From an uncultured Gammaproteobacteria bacterium (GTDB taxonomy: Bacteria > Pseudomonadota > Gammaproteobacteria > DRJJ01), in the NCBI GenBank assembly GCA_947258795.1, contig CAMYJU010000016.1, forward strand, positions 21,178 to 85,177: 64,000 bases of DNA, read 5' to 3'. Shown piece by piece: positions 1,428 through 45,058 of the stretch; the first letter of the stretch is position 1; every line of letters begins with the position of its first letter. A program made the position numbers and the translations under genes. The notes below the pieces were generated by a model. It made no database searches. It was not told where the DNA came from and worked only from the letters and a program-made list of their open reading frames with translations.

Positions 1428-3359
1428 TCAGGTGCTCAGCACGGTTAACAGACTATTCAGTCGCCGCACGTAAGCGGCCGGATCAACAAGCTGACCCCCT
1501 TCGCTTAACAGTGCCTGATCAAACAGCACATGGGTCCAGTCCTCGAACAGTTTCTCGTCCTGCTGACTGTTGAGACGTTCAACCAGTGCGTGCCCTGAAT
1601 TGACCTCCAGGATCGGCTTAACACCCGGTACTGCCTGGCCGGCCTGTTTGAGCATGTGCTGAAGATTCAGGGCCATCTCGTCTTCCTCGACTACCAGGCA
1701 GGAGGGCGAATCGGTCAGACGATGTGAAATACGCACCTTTGCCACCCGCTCATCCAGAACCTTGTGCATTTTCTCGAGCAGCTCCGCATAGCTCTTGTCA
1801 GTCTCTTCCTGTTCCTTTTTCTGTTCGTCACTGTCCAACCCATCCAGGTCCAGCTCACCCTTGGCCGCAGACTGCAGTTTTTTGCCATCAAATTCGGTCA
1901 GGTGGGACACCAACCATTCATCCACGCGGTCTGACAGCAGCAGCACCTCGATATCCTTCTTGCGGAAGATTTCCAGGTGCGGGCTGTGCAGTGCCGCATT
2001 GTAATTGTCCGCGGTGATGTAGTAGATCTTGTCCTGCCCATCCTGCATGCGCGAGACATAGTCATCCAGCGAAACATTCTGGGTGTCACCCTCACCCCTG
2101 GTTGAGGCAAAGCGCAACAGTTTGGCGATCCGTTCACGGTTAGCATAGTCCTCGGCCGGCCCTTCCTTGATCACATTACCGAACTCCTTCCAGAAGCCTG
2201 CATATTGCTCAGGCTCCTTGCTGGCCATCGACTCCAGCATACCCAGTATCTTCTTGACCGAACCACCGCGGATACTGTCGATCAGACGGTTATGCTGCAG
2301 AATTTCGCGCGAGACATTCAATGGCAAATCATCCGAGTCCACTACCCCCTTGATGAAACGCAAATACTGCGGCATCAGGTGCTCGGCGTCGTCCATGATG
2401 TACACACGTTTCACATACAGCTTAACCCCTTTCTGCTTGTCCCGGTCCCACAGGTCGAACGGTGCGCGCCTGGGGATATAAAACAGCGTGGTATAGGACT
2501 GGGTGCCTTCGACCTGGTTATGTATCCAGCTCAGCGGCTCTTCAAAGTCATGCGCAATATGCTTGTAGAATTCCCTGTACTCGTCATCCTCGATATCCTT
2601 CTTGGCACGCGTCCACAGCGCCGAGGCCTGGTTGACAGTCTCCCAGACCAGTTCTGTTTTCTTTTCAGCCTCCGGCTGCTCCTCTTCCTGCGCTTCCGTT
2701 TCGACAGTCTGCTCGACCTGCATCTGGATCGGCAGGTTAATATGGTCCGAGTACTTCTTGATGATATGTTTCAGTCGGAATTCTTCCAGGAACTCGATCG
2801 ACTCGTCATTCATGTGCAGGATGATATCGGTTCCACGACCGGTCTTTTCCATGGTCTCCAGTTCATATTTGCCCTTGCCATCGGATATCCAGCGCACCCC
2901 GTGTTCACTGCCCAGCCCGGCACGACGGCTCTCGACCATGACCTGGTCGGCAACGATAAAGACTGAATAGAACCCGACGCCGAACTGGCCTATCAGCATC
3001 GAGTCCCTGGCCTTGTCACCAGTCAGCGATTCCAGAAACTGCTTGGTACCACTTTTGGCAATCGTACCCAGATGTTCAACAATCTCGTTGCGATCCATAC
3101 CGATACCATTGTCCGATACAGTGAGTGTCCGATTGTCCTTGTCAAAACGAATACTGATGGCCAGGTCGGGATCGTCTTCGTACAGCGCATCATCGACCAG
3201 CCCCTCAAAACGTAACTTGTCACAGGCATCGGAGGCATTGGAAACCAGTTCCCGCAAAAATATCTCCTTGTCTGAGTACAATGAATGGATCATCAGCTGC
3301 AATAACTGCTGGGCCTCCGCCTGAAACTCCAACGTTTCCTTATGAGCCTGAACTGTCAT
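1428..3359 (-). CDS. htpG: Molecular chaperone HtpG (Hsp90)
   Basis: 643 aa; N-terminus EFQAEAQQLLQLMIHSLYSDKEIFLRELVSNASDACDKLRF matches HtpG GHKL ATPase signature. Confidence 0.97.
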   Translation of the reverse strand: MTVQAHKETLEFQAEAQQLLQLMIHSLYSDKEIFLRELVSNASDACDKLRFEGLVDDALYEDDPDLAISIRFDKDNRTLTVSDNGIGMDRNEIVEHLGTIAKSGTKQFLESLTGDKARDSMLIGQFGVGFYSVFIVADQVMVESRRAGLGSEHGVRWISDGKGKYELETMEKTGRGTDIILHMNDESIEFLEEFRLKHIIKKYSDHINLPIQMQVEQTVETEAQEEEQPEAEKKTELVWETVNQASALWTRAKKDIEDDEYREFYKHIAHDFEEPLSWIHNQVEGTQSYTTLFYIPRRAPFDLWDRDKQKGVKLYVKRVYIMDDAEHLMPQYLRFIKGVVDSDDLPLNVSREILQHNRLIDSIRGGSVKKILGMLESMASKEPEQYAGFWKEFGNVIKEGPAEDYANRERIAKLLRFASTRGEGDTQNVSLDDYVSRMQDGQDKIYYITADNYNAALHSPHLEIFRKKDIEVLLLSDRVDEWLVSHLTEFDGKKLQSAAKGELDLDGLDSDEQKKEQEETDKSYAELLEKMHKVLDERVAKVRISHRLTDSPSCLVVEEDEMALNLQHMLKQAGQAVPGVKPILEVNSGHALVERLNSQQDEKLFEDWTHVLFDQALLSEGGQLVDPAAYVRRLNSLLTVLST

Positions 3360-3516
3360 ATCTGCCTTACTCCTATGAATTTATTACTAAATTTAAAAAG
3401 ATGTCCGCACCCGACCATGGCCGGTATGGCAAAAAAATGTTATTTGTCGCTCAAATTGGGGCGCAGCGGGTAAATATCAAGGGAAACATGCGGATTTTCA
3501 CCCCAAACACCAGCGA

Positions 3517-4218
3517 CTAGCGCTGGAAGCTGCCATGCTGCAAAAAATGGATACTCTGACGAATAGCGGTATCGCTCTTCATGATAAACGGATGGGTATG
3601 CGGCAACACCAGAAAATCGGACATGCCTTCCAGTTGTGCGCTCTGCAGCGATACCTTGCCGTCGTTTCTGCCGGGGATCAGGCAGGACAACAGCAGATTG
3701 ATACTGCGGTTACCGGTGATAATGCCGAGCTCAAAATTCGCCGGCCCCAGGGATTTTGGAATGTCGTTTTCTCCCGTACCCAACTGCAGGCCGGCCAGGC
3801 CATTGATAAACCGGAACCCTGGCAGATGGGCCAGCCTGTCGATAATTTCACTCCCCCGGTTCGGTGGACTGAGCATCACAACCCGGCCCAGTTTAGGGCA
3901 TTCATGGCGGGCCAGGTACTGACGCACCAGAATACCACCCATTGAATGGGTAATAAAATGGACCGTAGCTATCGCCCTGTCCTGTTCACAGCTGTGCAAG
4001 GCGTCCATGATGGCCAGTTCGGACAGCTCTTCCACGGTTGCCTTGCGAGACGGATAATCATAATTGATCACCTTGTAACCATGCTGCTGCAGTCGCTTTT
4101 CCAGCTTGTTCATCGACACACTGGTCCGTGCCAGACCATGCAACAGGATCACACATTCCTTACCGGCTATTTCCTGATTGATGATTGTCTGGCCTGGAAC
4201 TGACATGTTTGCCCACAA
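3517..4218 (-). CDS. Alpha/beta hydrolase fold esterase/lipase-like protein
   Basis: 233 aa; nucleophile elbow HSMGG (GXSXG) and HG oxyanion motif (ILLHGL). Confidence 0.7.
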   Translation of the reverse strand: MWANMSVPGQTIINQEIAGKECVILLHGLARTSVSMNKLEKRLQQHGYKVINYDYPSRKATVEELSELAIMDALHSCEQDRAIATVHFITHSMGGILVRQYLARHECPKLGRVVMLSPPNRGSEIIDRLAHLPGFRFINGLAGLQLGTGENDIPKSLGPANFELGIITGNRSINLLLSCLIPGRNDGKVSLQSAQLEGMSDFLVLPHTHPFIMKSDTAIRQSIHFLQHGSFQR

Positions 4219-4897: not shown

Positions 4898-6247
4898 TTA
4901 CCTGCCGCCAGGCAGTTCCACGCGGAACTCGGATCCTTCACCCGGTGTACTGTCAAACGAGATCCTGCCTGCCATCATCTCAGCAAGCTGTTTAGCGATC
5001 ATCAGGCTCAGCCCGGAACCTTCGATAATCGAGTCTTTGTGACCTCGGTAGTGGTATGACTGCAGCAGCTTTCTGGCGTCTTCAACGGTAATCCCTTCAC
5101 CGGTGTCCTGCACGGCAATCATCACGCTACCCGTTTCCGTTTTGCTGCAACTCACAGTAACACTGCCGCCGGGATGATTGTAGGTACAGGCATTGGCCAG
5201 CAGTGTAAGCAATATTTGTTTCAGACGAACCAGGTCTGCCCTGACCGTAATACCAACTGGAGGGCACTGCTTATAGTCAAGCATAATATCATTGTTGACT
5301 GCCCGCGGCTCTATCAACCCGATACATTCCGCAACCAGTTCGTTGCAGTCCACATCTACAATATGCAGTTCGATCATGCGCGCCTCGATCTTGGCCAGAT
5401 CGAGCAGATTTTCAATCGAACCCAGTAGCTGTGTGCTGGCCTTGAGCACATCTTCGGTGTCCTTGCGATGGACATCCGAATAGGCCATATCCATCCTGTG
5501 TGACTGCGCGAAAGAACGAATAGCGCTCAATGGCATGCGCAGTTCATGACTCATCCTGGCCAGAAACTCGCTCTTGGCAGCGTTGGCAATTTCCGCCTCG
5601 GCCTTGGCGTCAATCAGGTCATTGGACAACATGATTGAGCTTAACAATACCCTCCGGTAGATCGCCCCGGTAGCAAAAAACGCAATGATTGCGACGCAAA
5701 GCATCATCCCCATGAACAGGTGGATCTCGCCGGGCTGTATCAGGAACCAGATGGTTATCGGCAACATGATCACCACGATATAGGTAAAGTAGACATACAG
5801 CACTGCACCGATAACCGCGGATGCGCCGGCCATCAAACCTCCCAGTGTAAAGGCCAGTAGCACCGGCACTTCAAGTCCATCATAGGGCGAAAACAGCCAG
5901 ATGGTTGCACCCCAGGTCAGGCCTGCCAGTGATGAACCGGCATAGAAGGCATAACACCACACATGCATCCTGCCATCAGGTGGCCGTAGCTGCCTGAAAC
6001 GCATCAGCGTGGCGGCACGCAGGCCGGTAAAAAACATCAAAACGACGAACCAGTACAGCAAAACCTTGTTCGGCACACGGTCCCACAGTACCCATAACAC
6101 CACCACCGCCAGTACAAGGTTAACGATCAGCCCGGTCGTGGCATTACGGAAAAGAAATCGGACCTGCTCGGCAAAGATATTGACGCGCTTCAAATATACA
6201 ATATCCGGTTCATGGGCCGCACGACTGTCCAGATCCATCTCATCCAT
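4898..6247 (-). CDS. Membrane sensor histidine kinase (multi-TM N-terminal sensor, HisKA + HATPase, no receiver)
   Basis: 449 aa; 6-7 predicted TM helices, H-box FLARMSHELRMPLSAI, G-boxes DTGEGI and GSGLSL. Confidence 0.85.
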   Translation of the reverse strand: MDEMDLDSRAAHEPDIVYLKRVNIFAEQVRFLFRNATTGLIVNLVLAVVVLWVLWDRVPNKVLLYWFVVLMFFTGLRAATLMRFRQLRPPDGRMHVWCYAFYAGSSLAGLTWGATIWLFSPYDGLEVPVLLAFTLGGLMAGASAVIGAVLYVYFTYIVVIMLPITIWFLIQPGEIHLFMGMMLCVAIIAFFATGAIYRRVLLSSIMLSNDLIDAKAEAEIANAAKSEFLARMSHELRMPLSAIRSFAQSHRMDMAYSDVHRKDTEDVLKASTQLLGSIENLLDLAKIEARMIELHIVDVDCNELVAECIGLIEPRAVNNDIMLDYKQCPPVGITVRADLVRLKQILLTLLANACTYNHPGGSVTVSCSKTETGSVMIAVQDTGEGITVEDARKLLQSYHYRGHKDSIIEGSGLSLMIAKQLAEMMAGRISFDSTPGEGSEFRVELPGGR

Positions 6248-34181: not shown

Positions 34182-36434
34182 TCACGACTCAACCAGCAGC
34201 GCATCCACCTTACGGAATCCCCGGGCCAGCTTGCTGCCCCGCCTTCCCCGCTCGCCGGCATATTCATCCACTTCATCCGCCTTCATGGTCTTGTGGCGCT
34301 GGCCTGACAGCAGGGTCAGTTTCTCACCATCCTGTATCGTGCAAATTGCACTGACATATTCCTCTCGGGCGGCGGCTCGCCTGGATGGAATGCCAATAAT
34401 CTTGTTGCCCTTGCCCTTGGGTAAAACTGGCAACTCGGAACTATCAACCACCAGCATGTTGCCCTCGGTAGTCACCACAACCACCCAGTCCTTTTCCAGA
34501 TCACGTACCATGACCGGCGGTAACAGGCGACATCCTTTTGGTACCGAAACAACTTTCTTGCCAGTCTTGTTACGGGTAAGCATCTCTTCCAGTTTGATAA
34601 AGAACCCGTACCCGGCATCAGATGCCAGCAGGACATGGTCATCCGGTTCACCCATGATCACACCGACAAACTCCGCACCCGGTGGAGTCTTGAAACGCCC
34701 GGTCAGTGGCTCCCCCTGTCCACGCGCCGATGGCAGGCTGTGCGCCATCAGGGCGTAGCTACGCCCACTGCTGTCCAGAAACACAGCTAACTGGTTCGAA
34801 CGGCCCTGTGCCGATGCCTGGTAGGCATCACCTGACTTGTATGCCAGGCTGCGCCCGTCGACATCATGTCCCTTTGCTGCCCTCGCCCAGCCACGCTGTG
34901 ACAGTACCACGGTCTGGTTTTCGCTGGGCACCAGGTCGGTTTCATCCAGTGCCTGCGCAGCCTCACGGGATACGATCGGTGAACGTCGGTCATCACCATA
35001 GTCCCCGGCATCGGCCTTGATCTCTTTCTTGAGCAGGGTCTGCATACGCTGCTTTGAACCCAGCGTCTTTTTCAGTTGATCACGTTCCTCGACCAGCGCC
35101 TGCTGTTCTTCACGTATTTTCATTTCTTCCAGACGGGCCAGTTGACGCAGTCGCGTATCCAGGATGTAGTCGGCCTGCTCTTCTGACAGTTTGAAGCGTT
35201 TGATCAGGACCGGCTTGGGCTTGTCCTCCTTGCGGATAATCGCGATAACCTCGTCAAGGTTTAGGAAAACAATTAACGCGGCATCAAGCAGGTGCAGTCG
35301 TTTATTGACCTTGTCCAGACGAAACTCCAGGCGGCGTCTGACGGTTTCCAGGCGGAACTTTAACCATTGCTTGAGCAGACTGCGCAGATCGAACACCTGT
35401 GGACGACCTTCCAGGCCGATCATGTTCATATTGACACGATAGCTGCGCTCCAGATCGGTGGTTGCAAACAGGTGCGCCATCAAACGTTTGGTGTCCACCC
35501 GGTTGGAACGAGTTACGACAACCAGGCGTACCGGGTTTTCATGGTCTGACTCGTCACGCAGGTCCTCCACCAGCGGCAGTTTTTTCGCCTGCATCTGCGC
35601 TGCAATCTGCTCCAGTATACGTGCACCCGAGACCTGGTAGGGCAGCGCGGTGATAATGATGTCACTGCCTTCCTTTTCAAACACCGCACGGCTACGTATC
35701 GAGCCATGACCGGTCAGGTACGTATTAAGAATTTCACTACGCGGGGTAATGATCTCGGCCTCGGTCGGATAATCCGGGCCCTTGATATGCTCACACAGTT
35801 GTTCAACCGTCGACTTGGGCTGGTCCAGCAGCCTAATACAGGCACTGGCCACCTCACGTAGATTGTGCGGCGGGATATCCGTCGCCATACCGACAGCGAT
35901 TCCACTACCGCCATTCAACAGTACATTGGGCAGACGTGCCGGTAATAATTCCGGCTCTTGCAGGGTACCATCGAAATTCGGGCCCCAGTCCACGGTACCC
36001 TGGCCGAGCTCCGCCAGCAGCAACTGCGCATAGCCGGCCATACGCGATTCGGTATAGCGCATTGCCGCAAAGGACTTAGGGTCGTCCTGCGACCCCCAGT
36101 TCCCCTGACCATCGACCAGTGGGTAACGGTACGAGAACGGCTGCGCCATCAATACCATGGCCTCATAGCAGGCGCTATCGCCATGCGGGTGGAACTTACC
36201 CAGTACATCCCCGACCGTACGTGCCGATTTCTTGTACTTGGATGTCGCATTCAAACCCAATTCAGACATCGCGTAGATAATGCGCCGCTGCACCGGTTTC
36301 AGACCATCGGCCAGGTTAGGCAACGCACGATCAAGAATCACATACATGGAGTAGTCCAGGTAGGCCTTCTCGGTATACTGTTTCAATGGCATTTTTTCGA
36401 GGCCATCGAAATCAAGCGGCATGTTATCGGACAT
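34182..36434 (-). CDS. parC: DNA topoisomerase IV subunit A
   Basis: 750 aa; [13 protein letters not shown] and active-site Tyr region; length fits ParC rather than GyrA. Confidence 0.93.
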
Positions 36435-36480
36435 GCGTTTCTATCCTCATAAAGTTATCTTGGAGCGCTAGCTTCCTGAT

Positions 36481-36570
36481 CGCTATGTTCTTTACTGACC
36501 GTCGGCCGCATGGACGCGGCCGTCGAGCCTACATGGATGTATTTACGGCGTGTCAGCAAAGAACATAGCG
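36481..36570. repeat. 90-bp nested imperfect palindrome in the parE-parC intergenic spacer
   Basis: Outer arms cgctatgttctttactgac / gtcagcaaagaacatagcg (1 mismatch); inner hairpin cggccgc-atggac-gcggccg. Confidence 0.7.
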
Positions 36571-36592
36571 GACAGGGAGCGAAATATTTACA

Positions 36593-38479
36593 CTACACAA
36601 CCGCAAGATCGCCCTTCTTCTCCAGCCATGCCTTGCGGTCTGATGAACGTTTTTTGGACAACAACATATCCATCAGCTGATCTGTTTTATCGGCTGAGCC
36701 CAGCGTCAGTTGCACCAGTCTGCGCGTATCCGGGTCCATGGTAGTTTCACGCAGTTGCATCGGATTCATCTCACCCAGCCCCTTGAAGCGCTGTACATCC
36801 ACCTTGCCCTTGAGCTTCTCGGCTTCGATACGGTCCAGTACGCCCTGTTTCTCGCTGTCATCCAGTGCATAGTAAACATCCTTGCCCACATCGACACGGT
36901 ACAATGGCGGCATGGCTACATAGACATGCCCTTCCTCGACCAGCGCGCGGAAATGGCGCAGGAACAGCGCGCATAACAACGTCGCGATATGAGCACCGTC
37001 AGAATCGGCGTCCGCCAGTATGCAGATACGATTGTAGCGCAAACCTGACAGGTTCGGATTACCCGGGTCCACACCGATGGCCTGGGCGATGTCGTGTACT
37101 TCCTGTGATCCCAGTACCGAGGCCGAGTCAACTTCCCAGGTATTGAGTATCTTGCCACGCAATGGCATCACTGCCTGGTATTCACGATTGCGCGCCTGCT
37201 TCGCAGAACCGCCGGCCGAATCGCCTTCCACCAGAAACAGTTCGGTACGACCGGCGTCCTGGGAACTGCAGTCGGCCAGCTTGCCGGGCAAGGCCGGACC
37301 ACTGGTTACCTTCTTGCGCACCACTTTTTTACCAGCACGCAGACGCTGCTGGGCATTCTGTATCGCCAGCATGGCTATTTTCTCGCCGGTCTCGCTATGC
37401 TGATTCAACCACAGCCCAAACGCATCCTTGACCACACCGGACACAAATGCCGCACATTCACGCGATGACAGCCGTTCCTTGGTTTGTCCGGAAAATTGCG
37501 GATCAGACAGCTTGACCGATAGCACATAACTTACGCGATCCCAGACATCCTCGGGTGCAATGCGCACACCTCGTGGTACCAGGTTCCTGAATTCGCAGAA
37601 TTCGCGTACCGCCTCGGTCAGGCCGGTACGCAGACCATTCACGTGTGTGCCGCCCTGCGCGGTCGGGATCAGGTTAACATAGCTCTCCATCACCCCTTCG
37701 CCACCATCCGGTAACCAGACGACTGCCCAGTCCGCCATTTCAGAACGACCCTGCATATGACCGGAAAAAGGCTCTTCCGGCAGGCAGCTGGCGCCTGACT
37801 GCTCATCCTTCAGGTACTGGGTCAGGCCATCCTGGTATTGCCATTCCTGCTCTTCCCCGGAGGCCTCGTCACTGAATTTAACCAGCAAACCCGGGCACAG
37901 GACCGCCTTGGCCCGCAGCAGATGTTTGAGTTTAAGGACAGAGATACGGGGCGAATCAAAATACTTCGGATCAGGCCAGAAACGCACGGTGGTCCCGGTA
38001 TTGCGCTTGCCGACCGTACCCACCACCTCCAGAGGAGTCTTGCGCTGACCATGCGCAAACGAGATATTGTATTCTTTGCCTCCCCGGCGTACCCAAACCT
38101 CCATATGTTTGGACAAAGCGTTGACGACCGAAACACCGACACCGTGCAAACCACCCGAGTAGGTATAATTCTTGTCAGAAAATTTACCGCCGGCATGCAG
38201 GCGGGTCAGGATCACCTCGACACCCGGGAGCTTCAGCTGCGGGTGCTTGTCCACGGGCATACCACGGCCGTCGTCACGCACCTCAACCGAACCGTCCTTG
38301 TACAGCGAGACGTCTATGGTCCTGGCATAACCGCTGATCGCCTCATCGACACTGTTGTCGACTACCTCCTGCGCCAGATGGTTGGGACGTGTCGTATCGG
38401 TATACATCCCGGGGCGTTTGCGCACCGGTTCCAGGCCGGTGAGCACCTCTATCGAGGCCGCATCATAATCGGTCGTCAT
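36593..38479 (-). CDS. parE: DNA topoisomerase IV subunit B
   Basis: 628 aa; GHKL ATPase, Toprim EGDSAGG; adjacent to parC. Confidence 0.93.
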   Translation of the reverse strand: MTTDYDAASIEVLTGLEPVRKRPGMYTDTTRPNHLAQEVVDNSVDEAISGYARTIDVSLYKDGSVEVRDDGRGMPVDKHPQLKLPGVEVILTRLHAGGKFSDKNYTYSGGLHGVGVSVVNALSKHMEVWVRRGGKEYNISFAHGQRKTPLEVVGTVGKRNTGTTVRFWPDPKYFDSPRISVLKLKHLLRAKAVLCPGLLVKFSDEASGEEQEWQYQDGLTQYLKDEQSGASCLPEEPFSGHMQGRSEMADWAVVWLPDGGEGVMESYVNLIPTAQGGTHVNGLRTGLTEAVREFCEFRNLVPRGVRIAPEDVWDRVSYVLSVKLSDPQFSGQTKERLSSRECAAFVSGVVKDAFGLWLNQHSETGEKIAMLAIQNAQQRLRAGKKVVRKKVTSGPALPGKLADCSSQDAGRTELFLVEGDSAGGSAKQARNREYQAVMPLRGKILNTWEVDSASVLGSQEVHDIAQAIGVDPGNPNLSGLRYNRICILADADSDGAHIATLLCALFLRHFRALVEEGHVYVAMPPLYRVDVGKDVYYALDDSEKQGVLDRIEAEKLKGKVDVQRFKGLGEMNPMQLRETTMDPDTRRLVQLTLGSADKTDQLMDMLLSKKRSSDRKAWLEKKGDLAVV

Positions 38480-39087
38480 TCAAACACCCCGATACTTTGT
38501 TCTGGTGGGTAACGGAGATTACGGATAATCTCTGACACATTGGTACTGGTTTCATAGTGAACACAAAAATATTCTTCAAACAGATCGTAGCGGTAACGGC
38601 CACTGCCTTCCTTCTCAATAGCACGCCATTTCGCTGTTTTTTGCAGTCTGAAATCACCGTCACCCACCGCATAGGCATAGGTCTTGTACTCGCCGGTCTC
38701 GCAGCGAATTCCTTCATGGCGCAAATTACGAACACCACTGGAGGACTGGATGACGACAGTAAAACGCCTGACCCCGTCATGTTCACCGATACTCAGTGAA
38801 GCGGAGTCAATCGCATAACGATAGTTGTCATAACCGCGGCTTACGACCTGTAACGGGATCAGGTTATGCGGCTTGGGTAGTTCAGGCAGGGTCTCGTTCT
38901 GTTCCTGCCATTGATGCTCTTCGATATGCTCGGGCAATTCCACCATCTCGGAAATGTCGGCACGCAACGGAACGGCCATCATCAGCAGTACACTGATTGC
39001 CATCAATCGGGAACAGGTCAGTTTTATCATCAATCTGCACTTGTTATTAACATAACAGCCCGGCGCAGGCCAGGCTGACCGGATCAT
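38476..39087 (-). CDS. Hypothetical periplasmic protein, possibly CNP1-like lipoprotein family
   Basis: 203 aa with signal peptide; 4-bp overlap with parE; family assignment from memory only. Confidence 0.4.
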   Translation of the reverse strand: MIRSAWPAPGCYVNNKCRLMIKLTCSRLMAISVLLMMAVPLRADISEMVELPEHIEEHQWQEQNETLPELPKPHNLIPLQVVSRGYDNYRYAIDSASLSIGEHDGVRRFTVVIQSSSGVRNLRHEGIRCETGEYKTYAYAVGDGDFRLQKTAKWRAIEKEGSGRYRYDLFEEYFCVHYETSTNVSEIIRNLRYPPEQSIGVFE

Positions 39088-39143
39088 TATAACAAGCCTG
39101 GACTGATAGTGGCAGACAGGATGCCGCTGATGAGACCCTGATT

Positions 39144-39746
39144 TCAGGCCAGATCTTCCACCAGTGATTGTCGCAGGACCTCAGTGACCGGGGAGGCCTG
39201 CTCACGCAGGTAGTCATGGTCAATACCGACACTGATAGAGCCCCCCGACCTGGCGCTGGCAATCATTTCCGGTGTCAGTTCAAAGCGGAGAAAGTGGACC
39301 GATGAGGTCTTGGTCTCGTTGGCCCTTTCCAGGTCTTCGTCGGCGATAGCGAACACCCTGTCGTGACCCTCTACGCTGACCCAGACGCGATCTTCCACAC
39401 CCAGCAGCTTTTCCAGCGCTATTTTACGTTCATTCTCATCTACATATTCGATCATAAACGTGACTTTCCAGTTGCTACCATCCGGGATCATCGGGTTATA
39501 GGTATCCAGTTCCTCCTGGATTGCCTCGGCCTCGAAGATGCGTTCTATACGCAACATCTCCTGGATCTGGTACTGCATGATCATCCTGTTCTCGAAGTGC
39601 AGACTGGCATGTTCACCCAGCTTCAAAACCCGGGTTTTCTTCTGCTCCATCACCTCACTGCGGAAGTCCTGACGGACCTCTGCATATTTCTCGAGACTGT
39701 ACAAATCATCTCTGGTCAGTTTCTGTTCGCTCATATCAAATTCCAT
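39144..39746 (-). CDS. DUF3501 family protein
   Basis: 200 aa; sits downstream of the CCG-domain Fe-S protein as in the conserved Rbr/Fe-S/DUF3501 arrangement. Confidence 0.65.
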   Translation of the reverse strand: MEFDMSEQKLTRDDLYSLEKYAEVRQDFRSEVMEQKKTRVLKLGEHASLHFENRMIMQYQIQEMLRIERIFEAEAIQEELDTYNPMIPDGSNWKVTFMIEYVDENERKIALEKLLGVEDRVWVSVEGHDRVFAIADEDLERANETKTSSVHFLRFELTPEMIASARSGGSISVGIDHDYLREQASPVTEVLRQSLVEDLA

Positions 39747-41073
39747 ACGCCTTGCGCAGCAGGCTGATCGGATGTACCAGCGTGCTGTTGTCTTTCATAC
39801 CATTGGCAATCTGATGCCCTGCCATCGGACAATCACTGGTGTAATAATCCGGCTCGAATTGCTTGACCCGGTTTACGACAGGACGGGCAATCTTCATCGA
39901 TATCTCGTGAAATTCCTTTTTAACGGCATAGGTGCCGTCATGTCCCGAACAACGTTCGATCGCCTCGATCTTTGTTTCCGGTATAAGCTGGAGTATATCG
40001 CGCGTCTTCATGCCGATACGCTGAACACGCTGGTGACAGGCCACATGGTAACTGACCTTGCCCAGCGGATGTTTGAAATCGGTATTCAGCCGGCCGTCCT
40101 TGTTGCGTAGCATTAGGTATTCGAACGGGTCAAACATGGCATCCCTGACCTTTGCCACCTGGGCATCATTCGGGAACATCAAGGGCAATTCCTGCTTGAA
40201 CATCAGTACGCAGGAAGGCACCGGTGCAATCAGATCCCAGCCCTGATCCACCAGCTCGGCCAGCATCGGAATATTGACTTCCTTTGCCTTTTGTACGGAT
40301 TCGAGGTCACCGAGTTCCAGCTTGGGCATACCACAGCATTGCTCACGGTTTGCAAAACCCACCTGCAAACCATTATGTTCCAGCACCTTGACCAGGTCAT
40401 CACCAATCTGTGGCTCGTTGTAATTGGCGTAACAGGTTGTGAAAATCGCAACCTTACCGCTGGTCTGGTCAGTCGCAACCGGCTCGATACCCTGGCTGGT
40501 ATAGCCCTGGTATTGCTTGCGCAGGGTCTTGCTATGGTATTTCGGTACCACGGCGTCCTTGTGTACCCCCAGTTGCGACTCGATAATATTGCGCATACCG
40601 CTGTTTCGATTGGCCGCGTTCACGATATTCACCACAACCGGGATACCGGCCAGACTACCCACCTTGTCGGTTGATGACAGCAACTCATCACGCTTGCTGG
40701 CGCCCTGCTTGCGGTATCGTACCGCCTTGGCACGTAGCATCAGATGCGGGAAATCGATATTCCATTCATGTGGCGGGATGTACGGGCATTTGGTCAGATA
40801 ACACAGATCACACAGGAAACAGTGATCGACTACTTTCCAGTAGTCTTCTTTTTTGACACCATCGACTTCCATGGTGTCGGACTCATCGACCAGGTCGAAC
40901 AGGGTTGGGAACGAGTTACACAGACTTACACAACGTCGGCAACCGTGACACAGGTCGTAGACCCGCTCCAGTTCCGCAAACAGATTGTCCTCGTCCCAGA
41001 ACGAATCACTGTGCCAGTCCAGCGAATGGCGGGTCGGTGCCTCCAGACTGCCTTCCTGTATACCAGTTGCCAT
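39736..41073 (-). CDS. (Fe-S)-binding oxidoreductase with two 4Fe-4S motifs and two CCG domains (HdrD/GlcF-like)
   Basis: 445 aa; CHGCRRCVSLC and CFLCDLCYLTKCP ferredoxin motifs; CCG-type cysteine clusters (TTCYANY...CCGMP; VACHQ...DCPMAG). Confidence 0.82.
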   Translation of the reverse strand: MATGIQEGSLEAPTRHSLDWHSDSFWDEDNLFAELERVYDLCHGCRRCVSLCNSFPTLFDLVDESDTMEVDGVKKEDYWKVVDHCFLCDLCYLTKCPYIPPHEWNIDFPHLMLRAKAVRYRKQGASKRDELLSSTDKVGSLAGIPVVVNIVNAANRNSGMRNIIESQLGVHKDAVVPKYHSKTLRKQYQGYTSQGIEPVATDQTSGKVAIFTTCYANYNEPQIGDDLVKVLEHNGLQVGFANREQCCGMPKLELGDLESVQKAKEVNIPMLAELVDQGWDLIAPVPSCVLMFKQELPLMFPNDAQVAKVRDAMFDPFEYLMLRNKDGRLNTDFKHPLGKVSYHVACHQRVQRIGMKTRDILQLIPETKIEAIERCSGHDGTYAVKKEFHEISMKIARPVVNRVKQFEPDYYTSDCPMAGHQIANGMKDNSTLVHPISLLRKAYGI

Positions 41074-41153
41074 ACAATGAACCCTCTAATGCAATCGCAA
41101 AGCAAACAGGCCGACATGCGCCGGCCTGTCTGTACTGAAAAACACCTGATTGA

Positions 41154-41573
41154 TTAGCCTTCCAGTGAATCCAGGGCCTTCTGGAAGCGGTTGGCGTGGG
41201 AGCGCTCCGCCTTGGCCAGGGTTTCAAACCAGTCAGCAATCTCGTCAAAGCCTTCATCGCGTGCAGACTTGGCCATACCCGGATACATGTCAGTGTACTC
41301 GTGGGTTTCGCCAGCAATGGCCGCCTTCAGGTTATCGGAAGTACCACCGATCGGCAGGCCGGTAGCCGGATCACCAACGGCTTCCAGGTACTCGAGGTGA
41401 CCATGGGCGTGGCCGGTTTCACCTTCGGCAGTTGAGCGGAACACGGCGGACACATCATTGTAGCCTTCTACGTCAGCCTTGGCCGCGAAGTACAGATACC
41501 GGCGGTTAGCCTGAGATTCACCTGCGAATGCGTCTTTCAGATTTTGTTCGGTTTTGCTTCCTTTAAGATCCAT
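41154..41573 (-). CDS. Rubrerythrin family diiron protein (no rubredoxin domain)
   Basis: 139 aa; two E...ExxH half-sites ([23 protein letters not shown]...ERSHANRF). Confidence 0.85.
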
Positions 41574-41871
41574 TGTAGTCTCCTCCTGCTGTCGGATAGG
41601 TTGAAAAACTGTTTTTAGACTTAGTCTAAGACTGGCGACAATTTAGCCCAATTGCTACGGCCTGTCAACACGTGCTGGGAATCTGTTGCTCCTTCAATGT
41701 CCTGAAAATACACCGTCTCCCTGTTGTTGATCGGTCAAGCTGGATCCACGCTGCTACGGTCACGACAAGCAGCTCATCACCACACTGCCCCATTCTCGGG
41801 ATCATCTGTGACAGCATAAATCTTATTGTCGATACAAGCAAAACTCCCGATCCGCCCGACATACTGGTAAG

Positions 41872-42150
41872 ATGCGCTTTTCAGATACGACCAGACAGGT
41901 GACCAGCTTGCCAACCAAAGCCAAAAAAGACAATGTCCAGCTTGAGAAATCGCTGAACGAGCTCGAGAAACTGGTGGATAAAATGGAACAGGGTGATATG
42001 TCTCTGGAAAAATCACTCGATTACTTCGAAAAAGGGATCAAACTGACACGCCAGTGCCAGCAGGCCCTGCAACAGGCCGAGCAACGGGTGCAAATCCTGC
42101 TGCAACAGGCTGATAGCGACAAACTGGAAGATTTCGACGACAATGTCTGA
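41872..42150 (+). CDS. xseB: Exodeoxyribonuclease VII small subunit
   Basis: 92 aa; QQAEQRVQILL matches XseB. Confidence 0.9.
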   Translation: MRFSDTTRQVTSLPTKAKKDNVQLEKSLNELEKLVDKMEQGDMSLEKSLDYFEKGIKLTRQCQQALQQAEQRVQILLQQADSDKLEDFDDNV

Positions 42151-43042
42151 GCAGCTCATGCATAGCCGGCTGGAGAATTACCAGCAACGAGTCCGTGCGG
42201 CCATGGAACACTGGTTGCCGGCCGCCGAAACCCACCCAACCGTATTACATGAAAGCATGCGCTATTCAACGCTGTCAGGTGGCAAATATTTCCGCCCGGT
42301 GCTGGTCTACGCCACCGGTGATGCGCTCGACATCGATCTTGCCCAGCTGGATGGAATCGCCAGTGCGGTCGAGATTATCCACTCTTACTCGCTGATCCAT
42401 GACGACCTGCCGGCCATGGATGACGACGACCTCAGGCGGGGGAAACCAACCTGCCACAAGGTGTTTGGCGAAGCCATGGCGATCCTGGCCGGTGACGCAC
42501 TACAGGCCCTGGCGTTTCATATCATTGCCCACGACCCGAAAATGCCAGTCACCGATAGTGTACGTATCCGCATTTTTGAAGCACTCACCCGTGCCTGTGG
42601 TTCGCTGGGCATGGCCGGTGGTCAGGCGATAGACCTGGTCTCCACGGGCCAACAACTGGGTATCGCCCAGCTGGAAAACATGCATATCCGCAAAACCGGC
42701 GCGCTGATACGCGCCAGTGTGCGCATGAGTGCGCTGTGCAAGCCCGACCTGGACACGGCTATCCTGCAGCAACTGGAACATTATGCAAAATGCATCGGTC
42801 TGGCATTCCAGATTCATGATGACATCCTGGATGTCGAGGGCGACGCCAAGGTAATGGGTAAAGCACAGGGTGCCGATAAGGCACTGGAAAAACCCACCTA
42901 CCCGGCCTTGCTGGGGCTGGAAGAGGCCCGTGAAAAGGCCAGAGAACTAATCGACGAGGCTGTCGACAGCCTGTCGTCGCTGGGTGACGTGGCGGATATG
43001 CTACGCTGGCTGGCCCGCTATATTATCACTCGATCAAACTAA
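42143..43042 (+). CDS. ispA: (2E,6E)-farnesyl diphosphate synthase
   Basis: 299 aa; FARM LIHDDLPAMDDDDLRRGKPT and SARM FQIHDDILD. Confidence 0.93.
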   Translation: MSEQLMHSRLENYQQRVRAAMEHWLPAAETHPTVLHESMRYSTLSGGKYFRPVLVYATGDALDIDLAQLDGIASAVEIIHSYSLIHDDLPAMDDDDLRRGKPTCHKVFGEAMAILAGDALQALAFHIIAHDPKMPVTDSVRIRIFEALTRACGSLGMAGGQAIDLVSTGQQLGIAQLENMHIRKTGALIRASVRMSALCKPDLDTAILQQLEHYAKCIGLAFQIHDDILDVEGDAKVMGKAQGADKALEKPTYPALLGLEEAREKARELIDEAVDSLSSLGDVADMLRWLARYIITRSN

Positions 43043-43150
43043 GTCTTTGAATTATAAAGAGCATGAGGCACTAACCCCGGTCCCGGCTTGCATGCTAACT
43101 CGTCGTTGCGGATAATAGCAGGCTTTCCTTATAGACACGAAGTTCCTGGA

Positions 43151-45058
43151 ATGCCGGATCTGAAGCGTTATCCATTACTGGCGCAAATCGAGACACCTGC
43201 CGATTTACGCGAGCTGTCACGTGACCAGTTACCTGATCTGGCCCGCGAACTGCGTGATTTCATGATTCACTCGGTGGCCAGCACCGGTGGACACCTGGCT
43301 GCCAGCCTGGGTACGGTGGAACTGACCATCGCCCTGCACTACGTGTTTAACACTCCAGAAGATGACCTGGTCTGGGATGTCGGTCACCAAACCTATCCGC
43401 ACAAGATACTGACCGGACGCCGCGACCGCATGGCCAGCCTGCGCCAGCAAAACGGACTGTCAGGCTTTCCAAAACGTGGTGAAAGTCCCTATGACAGCTT
43501 TGGTGTCGGTCATTCCAGTACCTCGATCAGTGCCGCACTGGGCATGGCCCTGGCCAATCAACGTATGGATAATGACAAACAGGTTATCGCCGTGATCGGC
43601 GACGGCGCAATGACTGCCGGAATGGCCTTTGAGGCATTGAATCATGCCGGTGACCTGGATAGCAATATGCTGGTCATCCTGAATGATAATGACATGTCGA
43701 TCGGTGAAAATGTTGGTGGCCTGTCTCGCTATACCGGACGCATTCTGGCGAGCAAGCTTTACACCAATATCCGTGAAGGCGGCAAAAAGGTACTCAACAG
43801 CCTGCCGCCACCCATAAAGGAATGGTCGCGCCGCGCTGAAGAGCACATGAAAGGCATGGTCGTTCCAGGCACCCTGTTTGAGGAACTGGGCTTTAACTAC
43901 ATTGGCCCGATCGATGGCCATGACCTGCCTGACCTGGTGCGCACCCTGGAAACCATCAAGACTCTGGATGGCCCGCGTTTTCTGCATATCATCACCACCA
44001 AGGGCAAGGGCTATGCCCCCGCTGAGGCCGACCCATGCGCCTACCATGGCGTTAGCCGTTTCAATACCCACACCGGCCAGGCTGAACAGAAAAGCGAATC
44101 AGACAACAAACTCACCTATACCCAGGTGTTTGGCCAATGGCTGTGCCGGATGGCTGAAACGGAATCCAGGCTGATCGCCATTACCCCGGCCATGCGCGAA
44201 GGCTCGGGCATGGTCGAATACTCCAGGAAATTTCCTGACCGCTACTATGACGTGGGTATTGCCGAACAACACGCGTTGACCCTGGCTGCCGGACTGGCCA
44301 GCAAGGGCATGAAACCGGTGGTAGCGATATATTCCACCTTCCTGCAACGCGCCTATGACCAGCTGGTCCATGATATCGCGCTGCAGAATCTACCTGTGGT
44401 ATTCGCGATCGACCGCGCCGGCATGGTCGGACCGGATGGCCCGACCCACGCCGGCAGTTTTGACCTCAGTTTCATGCGCTGCATACCCAATATGACCATT
44501 ATGGCGCCGGCCAATGAAGCCGAGTGTTATCGCATGCTGACCACGGCATTCAGGCACAACGCACCTGCTGCGGTAAGATATCCGCGAGGATGCGGACCAG
44601 GCAGCGACCTGCCTGCCGGGCTCGAAGATCTGCCGATCGGCAAGGCCGAAATCGTACGTCATGGTGAGCATGTCGCGCTACTGGTATTTGGCAGCCCGCT
44701 GGAACCCGCTATGGCAGTTGCCGACAAGCTGAACGCGACCGTTGTAAATATGCGCTTTATCAAGCCGCTGGATACCGGGCTGATCCAGAGATTGGCCGAA
44801 CAGCATGAGCTGCTGGTCACGCTGGAAGAAAACGTGATCGCCGGTGGTGCCGGATCGGCAGTCAGCGAATATCTGTCAGAACAGAACATCGTGACCAACT
44901 GCATCCATGTAGGCCTGCCGGACAGCTTCATTGAGCACGGTACCCGCGAGGAATGCCTGGATGCATGCGGCCTCAGCGAAAAACAGATACTTGAGCGCAT
45001 CAGGTCTGTTCTGCAGCCTCGGGATTGCAATCCCGGATCATCTCAATTAATATCCTAG
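43151..45058 (+). CDS. dxs: 1-deoxy-D-xylulose-5-phosphate synthase
   Basis: ORF 43088..45058, start likely [19 protein letters not shown]-binding [18 protein letters not shown]. Confidence 0.95.

Follow-up and report, generated by a model that had tools for sequence, protein, structure and literature searches.

How does a rubrerythrin that has no rubredoxin domain receive its electrons in an aerobic cell? The question is raised by a three-gene locus in a 64-kb stretch of DNA from an uncultured gammaproteobacterium (the window; all coordinates are window positions). Here the genes for a rubrerythrin (rbr, 41154–41573), a GlpC-like Fe-S/CCG protein (RFO, 39736–41073) and a DUF3501 protein (39144–39734) lie head to tail on the minus strand. 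On balance, and with moderate confidence, we favour a repressor-controlled peroxide reductase in which Rbr would do the catalysis, RFO would wire electrons to it and DUF3501 would act as an adaptor.

The triad itself is not new. It was called uncharacterised in an earlier reading of this stretch (the original prediction), but it had been named the 'aerobic-type rubrerythrin system', RBR-RFO-DUF3501, by Cardenas, Quatrini and Holmes (2016; PMC5114695). Gray et al. (2020; PMC7050145) described this trio in Andalucia and other protists, where mitochondrial targeting is predicted for it. According to the available passages of the latter paper, bacteria and archaea both have the system, and it has been reported from protist mitochondria as well. 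Those of PMC5114695 describe the co-occurrence of the three families as near-exclusive (4461 genomes, 185 with all three, 25 with RBR+DUF3501 only), note DUF3501-RFO fusions in Nitrosomonas and propose that RFO makes up for the lost rubredoxin domain. Because domain content, gene order and the published definitions match, the window locus is a typical copy of this system. The triad is a widespread 'known unknown': the electron supply to rubredoxin-less rubrerythrin in aerobes is the question it could answer, and biochemical work that did so would establish a new route of peroxide scavenging. Our analysis adds a corrected anatomy, a case against heterodisulfide reductase (Hdr)-type chemistry, and a conserved operator resembling the iron control element (ICE) together with a candidate Irr-like repressor.

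Conservation was scanned with one genome per species; 599 DUF3501 loci were found and the best 80 of 599 kept, of which 67 have enough upstream sequence to be evaluated. The order rbr>RFO>DUF3501 on one strand is kept in 64/67 of these loci, all from distinct species. The exceptions are L013 (DUF3501 alone), L051 and L056 (RFO-DUF3501 without rbr). Identity to the window proteins is 84–95% for Rbr, 59–74% for RFO and 57–66% for DUF3501, and the closest relatives are metagenome-assembled genomes (MAGs) of uncultured Gammaproteobacteria at ∼ 80% identity. The trio is thus a conserved, co-oriented unit, as had been supposed. Since the order is kept and DUF3501 is tightly coupled (see below), the genes do not disperse in relatives, nor does DUF3501 look like an independent neighbour. 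Clustering of the open reading frames (ORFs) of all 80 neighbourhoods gave no recurrent reductase, flavoprotein or rubredoxin partner beside the trio. The DUF3501 family comprises 3,290 clusters at 50% identity; no DUF3501-RFO fusion was present among the 150 best family representatives, so the argument from fusions rests on Cardenas et al. (2016).

Rbr is an aerobic-type rubrerythrin of 139 aa whose gene has a strong AGGAGG ribosome-binding site. The family match (PF02915, E 1.9e-29) spans residues 11–133, and the protein has no further domain, no rubredoxin domain and no cysteine. The seven-ligand set of a rubrerythrin-type diiron peroxidase (E, ExxH, ExxE, ExxH) is complete, and its positions E19, E52/H55, E89/E92 and E123/H126 are invariant in 62 orthologues (mean identity 90%). 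Matches in the PDB are Burkholderia pseudomallei Rbr (BpRbr; 9onm/4di0, E 1e-75) and sulerythrin (1j30, E 3e-52), whose peroxidase activity is cited in the available part of the BpRbr preprint (PMC12154734). Because the seven ligands are invariant and the protein is close to both BpRbr and sulerythrin, we take Rbr to be a peroxidase-type catalyst. The constraint on Rbr across Gamma- and Betaproteobacteria (mean column identity 90%) is unusually strong for an enzyme of only 139 aa, perhaps because it has several surfaces for interaction.

RFO (445 aa) has two ferredoxin-type motifs, C42x2C45x2C48x3C52 and C85x2C88x2C91x4C96P (Fer4 dicluster in Pfam), and two stretches that match the CCG family (PF02754). 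This agrees with the original prediction, except that the second stretch reads C-S-G. CCG domain 1 contains four cysteines (C214, C246-C247-G, C288) and domain 2 three (C346, C375-S-G, C415), the terminal CXXC is missing from both, and all 15 cysteines of the protein are invariant in 71 orthologues. The label 'HdrD/GlcF-like' does not fit: the closest sequence family in NCBIfam is GlpC (246.9 bits versus a cut-off of 278 for NF008369, 174.7 versus 279.9 for TIGR03379, below both), whereas GlcF scores 37 bits and no Hdr model matched. The AlphaFold2 model of RFO has a predicted local distance difference test (pLDDT) score of 76.5 and is of low confidence in the cluster-binding ferredoxin part. 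With this model Foldseek returned LutA (E 4e-10, template modelling (TM) score 0.81 on the target), Mycobacterium smegmatis EtfD (2e-7) and HdrB (∼ 1e-6); the HdrB-like fold of the CCG region is seen with 5odc_B and 8rwn_B (E ∼ 1e-6, TM 0.6 on the target). When the PDB was searched with the RFO sequence, alone and in profile form, only chance ferredoxin-motif matches came back. No transmembrane segments were seen in Rbr, RFO or DUF3501.

What chemistry would these CCG domains support? GlpC, the nearest family, works with quinones. The Hdr reference motif, for which the description in PMC13083937 was used in part, has five cysteines in each CCG domain (C...CCG...CXXC) that bind a catalytic noncubane [4Fe-4S] cluster. 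In EtfD, which also reduces menaquinone, the second cysteine of the 'CC' is replaced and the cluster is a linear [3Fe-4S], shielded and non-catalytic, which the authors read as an adaptation to air (PMC13083937). Compared by motif and count, the C-S-G of RFO domain 2 is the same kind of replacement. The CCG domains had been called the hallmark of Hdr-like thiol/disulfide chemistry; with 4+3 invariant cysteines instead of 5+5, CSG in domain 2, no CXXC and an EtfD-like replacement, they are no such hallmark, and pure electron transfer is favoured. Of the suggested 'peroxide- or disulfide-reducing electron-transfer module', it is the peroxide role that is favoured, by the literature and by the regulation described below. 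A role for RFO as an electron wire is suggested by the 15 invariant cysteines, by the LutA/EtfD/HdrB fold and by the non-catalytic nature of the cysteine-reduced CCG cluster of EtfD.

DUF3501 (PF12007, E 3.5e-70) is 196 aa long from its probable start. Its longest ORF starts at 39746, and only in this form do the RFO and DUF3501 genes overlap by the 11 bp first reported. DUF3501 most likely begins at the second ATG, at 39734 (MSEQ/MxxKL), where P0001, a database protein of 196 aa with 100% identity, and 19 aligned homologues start. The overlap then disappears, and the coupling is equally tight: the RFO stop and the DUF3501 start are separated by a 1-nt spacer (TGAtATG), an arrangement by which DUF3501 is predicted to be translationally coupled to the RFO gene. 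This spacer, and the fusions and RBR+DUF3501 pairs without RFO reported in the available text of PMC5114695, link DUF3501 to its partners. The protein has no cysteine and no recognisable cofactor fold. Its model (pLDDT 90) consists of N-terminal helices and a beta-sandwich, and the most conserved stretch, ADEDLER...KTSSVHFLRF, includes the sole low-confidence loop; in a model, a conserved loop of this kind is typical of a partner-binding segment.

Upstream of rbr, a sigma-70-type promoter (41640–41668, minus strand) has its −35 TTGACA at 41668–41663, a 17-nt spacer and its −10 TAAATT at 41645–41640 (10/12 in a consensus scan). A perfect 15-bp 7-1-7 palindrome at 41615–41629, in minus-strand reading TTAGACTAAGTCTAA (TTAGACT-A-AGTCTAA), is an ICE-like/Fur-family box. 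With 10 nt between it and the −10 hexamer, the box lies over the point where transcription is expected to begin. The palindrome originally placed at 41618..41628 is an 11-mer, CTTAGTCTAAG, at 41620–41630, and is embedded in this longer one. A second small palindrome, AAAAACAGTTTTT (41604–41616, minus strand), abuts the operator in the 5′ leader and is partly conserved in L081 (AAAATTAGGTTTTT), which is weak evidence.

Counted in the window by itself, the degenerate core TTAGA-N5-TCTAA has no significance (0.73 expected). Across species, the core with ≤ 1 mismatch is found ≤ 300 bp upstream of rbr in 53/64 loci, and the 19 kb upstream of rbr contain 57 sites versus 5 in the rest of the 80 loci (∼ 780 kb). 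In ∼ 42/52 of the loci that have a box, 8–13 nt separate it from the end of the best TTGACA-17-TAnAnT match upstream. The left half-site of the box doubles as the −10 in ∼ 7 loci (TTGACA-17-TAGAAT), and three loci have a second box in the spacer. When the window is compared with the 80%-related L081, conservation in the intergenic region is confined to islands at the −35, the −10, the box and the ribosome-binding site; L082, like L081, has the box in identical form. Over the whole family the consensus reads tTTAGAcTnAgTCTAAA. The alphaproteobacterial Irr ICE reads TTTAGAA-N3-TTCTAAA (PMC1698941), and the window site cTTAGAC-TAA-GTCTAAA matches it at 11/14 specified positions and at 10/10 of the TTAGA/TCTAA core. 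That the palindrome could be an operator is therefore well borne out by its position upstream of rbr and its strong enrichment there: it is a real, widely conserved predicted operator of the Fur-family 7-1-7/Irr-ICE type. For the same reason the repressor foreseen as 'redox-responsive' is more likely to be an Irr/PerR-like sensor of iron, haem or peroxide than one of a general redox type.

Three other types of regulator were rejected for the box. The consensus of classical Fur differs. TTAG-N7-CTAA resembles half an OxyR site, but the window box is a single dyad downstream of the −10; and a MerR-type site would lie in the promoter spacer, where the box of the window does not. The available passages of PMC5114695, PMC7050145 and PMC12154734 contain no mention that we could find of the operator, the promoter architecture or the hairpin after rbr, and we found no description of this ICE-like operator of Gamma- and Betaproteobacteria in the available literature.

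A candidate for the repressor is encoded in L053, where a 144-aa Fur-family gene lies directly 3′ of DUF3501. Its best NCBIfam models are IrrA (107 bits, cut-off 150) and Irr (103, cut-off 170), ahead of PerRA (85). Set against reference sequences of Irr, PerR and Fur, the protein is Cys-less, without the Cys4 zinc site, and has the HHHH/HxH motif as in Irr. It has > 3,600 homologues, labelled 'Fur family iron response transcriptional regulator' by JGI. Six homologues, chosen only for their long contigs and 56–85% identical to each other, were examined, and in 6/6 contigs the Irr-like gene is convergent to an rbr-RFO-(EncFtn)-DUF3501 operon; with L053, it lies directly beside the operon in 7/7. 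At the rbr promoter, five of these seven loci show one perfect box, whereas that of L053 is degenerate and L091 has none. Irr and ICE were not found outside the Alphaproteobacteria by Rodionov et al. (2006; PMC1698941); an Irr-type regulator has already been predicted in Acidithiobacillus (PMC2631029). In Bradyrhizobium japonicum the rubrerythrin-like gene blr7895 is a proven Irr target and the best-studied Irr-repressed promoter (PMC3413700). The box in 53/64 loci, its fixed position at the promoter, the ICE match, blr7895 and the adjacent Irr-like genes together point to Irr-like repression. Operator and candidate repressor are direct handles on when the system is expressed.

Several observations on neighbouring genes concern this regulon. 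Two tandem perfect ICE-like boxes (TTAGATTCATTCTAA, TTAGAAAAATTCTAA; 1368–1399) lie in L041, 46 nt upstream of katG (ORF 1445–3706), which is next to rbr; this arrangement suggests that the same repressor also controls katG there. Among the 11 box-less loci, ATAG-N7-CTAT (OxyR-type) boxes are found upstream of rbr in L003, L034, L052 and L071. The oxyR gene adjoins rbr in L034 (3155–4024) and L076 (3166–4035), and L052 has a partial OxyR match (3537–3779). Two different peroxide- or iron-sensing regulators thus appear to have been recruited to the same operon, and the katG boxes and the OxyR-type boxes and genes link the regulon to peroxide. The Irr-adjacent clade also has, divergent from rbr, a gene for a 464-aa class-I flavoprotein disulfide reductase (GTTCARVGCMPSK; Pyr_redox_2 + Pyr_redox_dim; L088 7416–8429, also L053, L086/L087 and L089–L091), which may act there as an NAD(P)H-linked donor. 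The gene was not seen in the window or in the other 79 loci; L084 has a Pyr_redox gene of like size.

The interior of the operon is less uniform than first described. The common strand, the ORFs and the divergence from xseB stand; the tight packing does not extend to rbr and RFO, which are 80 nt apart. This gap contains a 13-bp GC-rich stem-loop (41103–41132, minus strand; −29.7 kcal/mol, z −2.55) followed by TTTGCTTTGCGATT. The hairpin is kept as structure and not as sequence (66 spacers, median z −2.8, 76% below −2), and in some loci (L012, L015, L023, L064) it is accompanied by a T-run. It is probably a partial terminator, an attenuator or an mRNA-stabilizing element, and its conservation predicts an unequal subunit stoichiometry. 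A fourth gene lies between RFO and DUF3501 in ∼ 14/64 operons (L068 ∼ 5640–6000, L084 5142–5447, L006, L017, L029, L045, L054, L072 and others). It encodes a ∼ 95-aa EncFtn-like half-ferritin (PF22277, E 3e-45) whose closest PDB entry is 3k6c, Nitrosomonas NE0167 (E 3e-47). The window lacks this gene, and in L084, the locus with Pfam-labelled neighbours, there was no sign of an encapsulin gene.

We propose that one strong sigma-70 promoter would drive rbr-RFO-DUF3501 as a three-gene unit. An Irr/PerR-type Fur-family repressor would, to judge from the comparison of loci, bind the 15-bp palindrome over the transcription start and shut the unit off until released by its own signal, for which peroxide and a sufficient supply of iron or haem are candidates. 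Owing to the hairpin after rbr, more Rbr than RFO and DUF3501 would probably be made, by attenuated read-through or by stabilization of the rbr message. The reduction of H2O2 to water would take place at the diiron site of Rbr; since this protein has no rubredoxin domain, its electrons would arrive via RFO, a soluble wire with two cubane [4Fe-4S] clusters and two cysteine-poor CCG-domain clusters. DUF3501 would probably serve as a docking or assembly adaptor between RFO and Rbr. As donor, a quinol or a general cytoplasmic reductant seems more likely than Hdr-type thiol chemistry.

A number of points weigh against this proposal. The role of the operon partners as electron donors is still only a hypothesis in the available part of the 2025 B. 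pseudomallei Rbr preprint (PMC12154734), and the fold of DUF3501 yields no functional clue. No Fur-family gene lies within the 64-kb window. The gammaproteobacterial Irr-like proteins score 92–116 bits, below the IrrA/Irr cut-offs of 150/170 (PerRA 77–87), and keep PerR-like regulatory metal-ligand positions. The seven Irr-adjacent loci are syntenic (DUF1853 - irr-like; flavoprotein disulfide reductase divergent from rbr) and may be one lineage. Pelagibacter rbr transcripts are slightly up under iron limitation, a misfit with simple Irr repression under low iron, and the EncFtn-like ferroxidase gene in about one fifth of the operons hints at an iron-handling role.

If that hint were followed, Rbr would be a ferroxidase or iron buffer, and RFO and DUF3501 would reduce or deliver iron under bacterioferritin-like Irr control. 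The ICE/Irr control is indeed shared with bfr and with rubrerythrin-like blr7895, which are induced in iron-replete medium, and the Pelagibacter rbr is annotated as a putative ferroxidase. Yet a 139-aa domain-swapped dimer has no mineral-storage cavity and Rbr retains the full peroxidase-type ligand set, although BpRbr binds several metals in a pre-formed site (available text of PMC12154734). In other loci the same operator, or OxyR boxes, accompany the peroxide genes katG and oxyR, and an iron-rich enzyme would be Irr-repressed under low iron regardless of its function. We regard an iron-handling module as unlikely. We are similarly sceptical of a thiol peroxidase or disulfide-forming module, in which the CCG domains of RFO would run Hdr-like chemistry in reverse and pass electrons from a dithiol (low-molecular-weight or protein) to Rbr and on to peroxide. 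The domains are homologous to HdrB and share its fold, and the flavoprotein disulfide reductase of the one clade could regenerate the dithiol donor. The restriction of that neighbour to its clade counts against the idea, as does the lack of the canonical 5+5 cysteines and of CXXC. Moreover, EtfD with the same cysteine lost has a shielded, non-catalytic cluster (PMC13083937); by sequence RFO is nearest to GlpC, and the menaquinone-reducing EtfD is among its nearest matches by fold.

The trio might also not be one functional unit at all, with the hairpin after rbr acting as a full terminator and RFO-DUF3501 forming a separate operon merely syntenic with rbr. A strong hairpin is present at this point in most loci, several with the T-runs of intrinsic terminators, and the loci that have RFO-DUF3501 without rbr (L051, L056) or DUF3501 alone (L013) would fit. 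The U-tail of the window hairpin is poor, though, and a scan found no promoter-like site in the 80-nt spacer. The order and strand kept in 64/67 loci and the near-exclusive co-occurrence in 4461 genomes (PMC5114695, available passages) make a separate operon very improbable. The peroxide reductase under repressor control remains our preferred reading. A broader idea is tentative, and we would not yet call it probable: that Irr-like repressor, ICE-like operator and aerobic rubrerythrin operon are one ancient module reaching well beyond the Alphaproteobacteria, with OxyR replacing the repressor in some lineages. RFO and DUF3501 would then be an uncharacterised electron feed by which a diiron peroxidase is supplied under air; one example would be a soluble peroxide reductase linked to quinol or to an electron-transfer flavoprotein (ETF)-like donor, with cysteine-reduced, oxygen-tolerant CCG clusters.

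The surroundings of the operon are conserved in part. Upstream, xseB (41872–42150, plus strand), ispA and dxs run divergently from rbr; downstream follow a CNP1-family gene, parE and parC. A divergent xseB is found in about half of the 80 loci, and CNP1 and parE/parC are frequent downstream. The block dxs-ispA-xseB <> rbr-RFO-DUF3501-CNP1-parE-parC (34182–45058) is fully syntenic in the 80%-related MAG L081. A terminator-like hairpin on the minus strand (39056–39077; 9 pairs, 7 G-C, tail TTATGTTAAT) sits between the DUF3501 stop and the probable CNP1 start and is the probable 3′ end of the unit. The CNP1-family protein (PF08750; 38476–39087, minus strand) has a hydrophobic N-terminal segment resembling a signal peptide. 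A sequence scan places a TG-extended −10 promoter-like site for its gene at 39115–39086; the end of the gene and the start of parE share 4 nt. CNP1 homologues lie 3′ of DUF3501 in ∼ 17/80 loci. ARAGORN calls a tRNA-Gly (anticodon ACC; 34780–34854, minus strand) within the parC coding sequence, where Rfam has no tRNA; the call is almost certainly a false positive. Rfam searches of the triad region and of the whole window gave no match.

How does the locus compare with known systems? With the classical chain of anaerobes (NAD(P)H:rubredoxin oxidoreductase (NROR) to rubredoxin to Rbr, as in Desulfovibrio vulgaris and Pyrococcus furiosus) it shares the four-helix-bundle diiron site, the seven ligand positions and the presumed reaction, H2O2 reduction. 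In contrast to that chain, Rbr here lacks the rubredoxin domain, no rubredoxin or NROR gene was seen beside the operon, and the electrons presumably enter via the CCG/Fe-S protein and DUF3501. RFO has the architecture of GlpC, LutA, mycobacterial EtfD and HdrB-HdrD, namely two ferredoxin-type [4Fe-4S] motifs and then two CCG domains. It does not reach the equivalog cut-off for GlpC, and neither the window region nor the set of recurrent neighbours showed an evident glpA or glpB homologue, no direct sequence search with GlpA or GlpB having been made. Unlike EtfD it is without membrane domain or haem, and unlike Hdr its CCG cysteines are 4+3. No Hdr partner subunit (HdrA/C, HdrE) was recognised among the recurrent neighbours parE, parC, ispA, xseB, dxs and CNP1, the other recurrent ORF clusters being unannotated.

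The likeness to the Irr-ICE regulon of B. japonicum (blr7895, bfr) extends to the TTAGA...TCTAA core, its spacing, the overlap with promoter and start, and the rubrerythrin gene downstream. The candidate regulator is likewise a Cys-less Fur-family protein with an HHH/HxH motif. The hosts here are Gamma- and Betaproteobacteria, however, box positions 6/10 prefer C/G and not A/T, and the regulator, below the Irr equivalog cut-offs, keeps PerR-like metal ligands. Closest of all is the published aerobic-type system, with which the window locus shares the three families, their order, the common strand, an Rbr without rubredoxin domain and an RFO nearest GlpC. From the B. pseudomallei operon, structures are available for Rbr (4DI0, 9ONM; window Rbr E 1e-75) and DUF3501 (3FJV; window DUF3501 E 1e-52); for RFO there is none. 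From this system the window member differs in nothing essential; it sits between xseB-ispA-dxs and CNP1-parE-parC.

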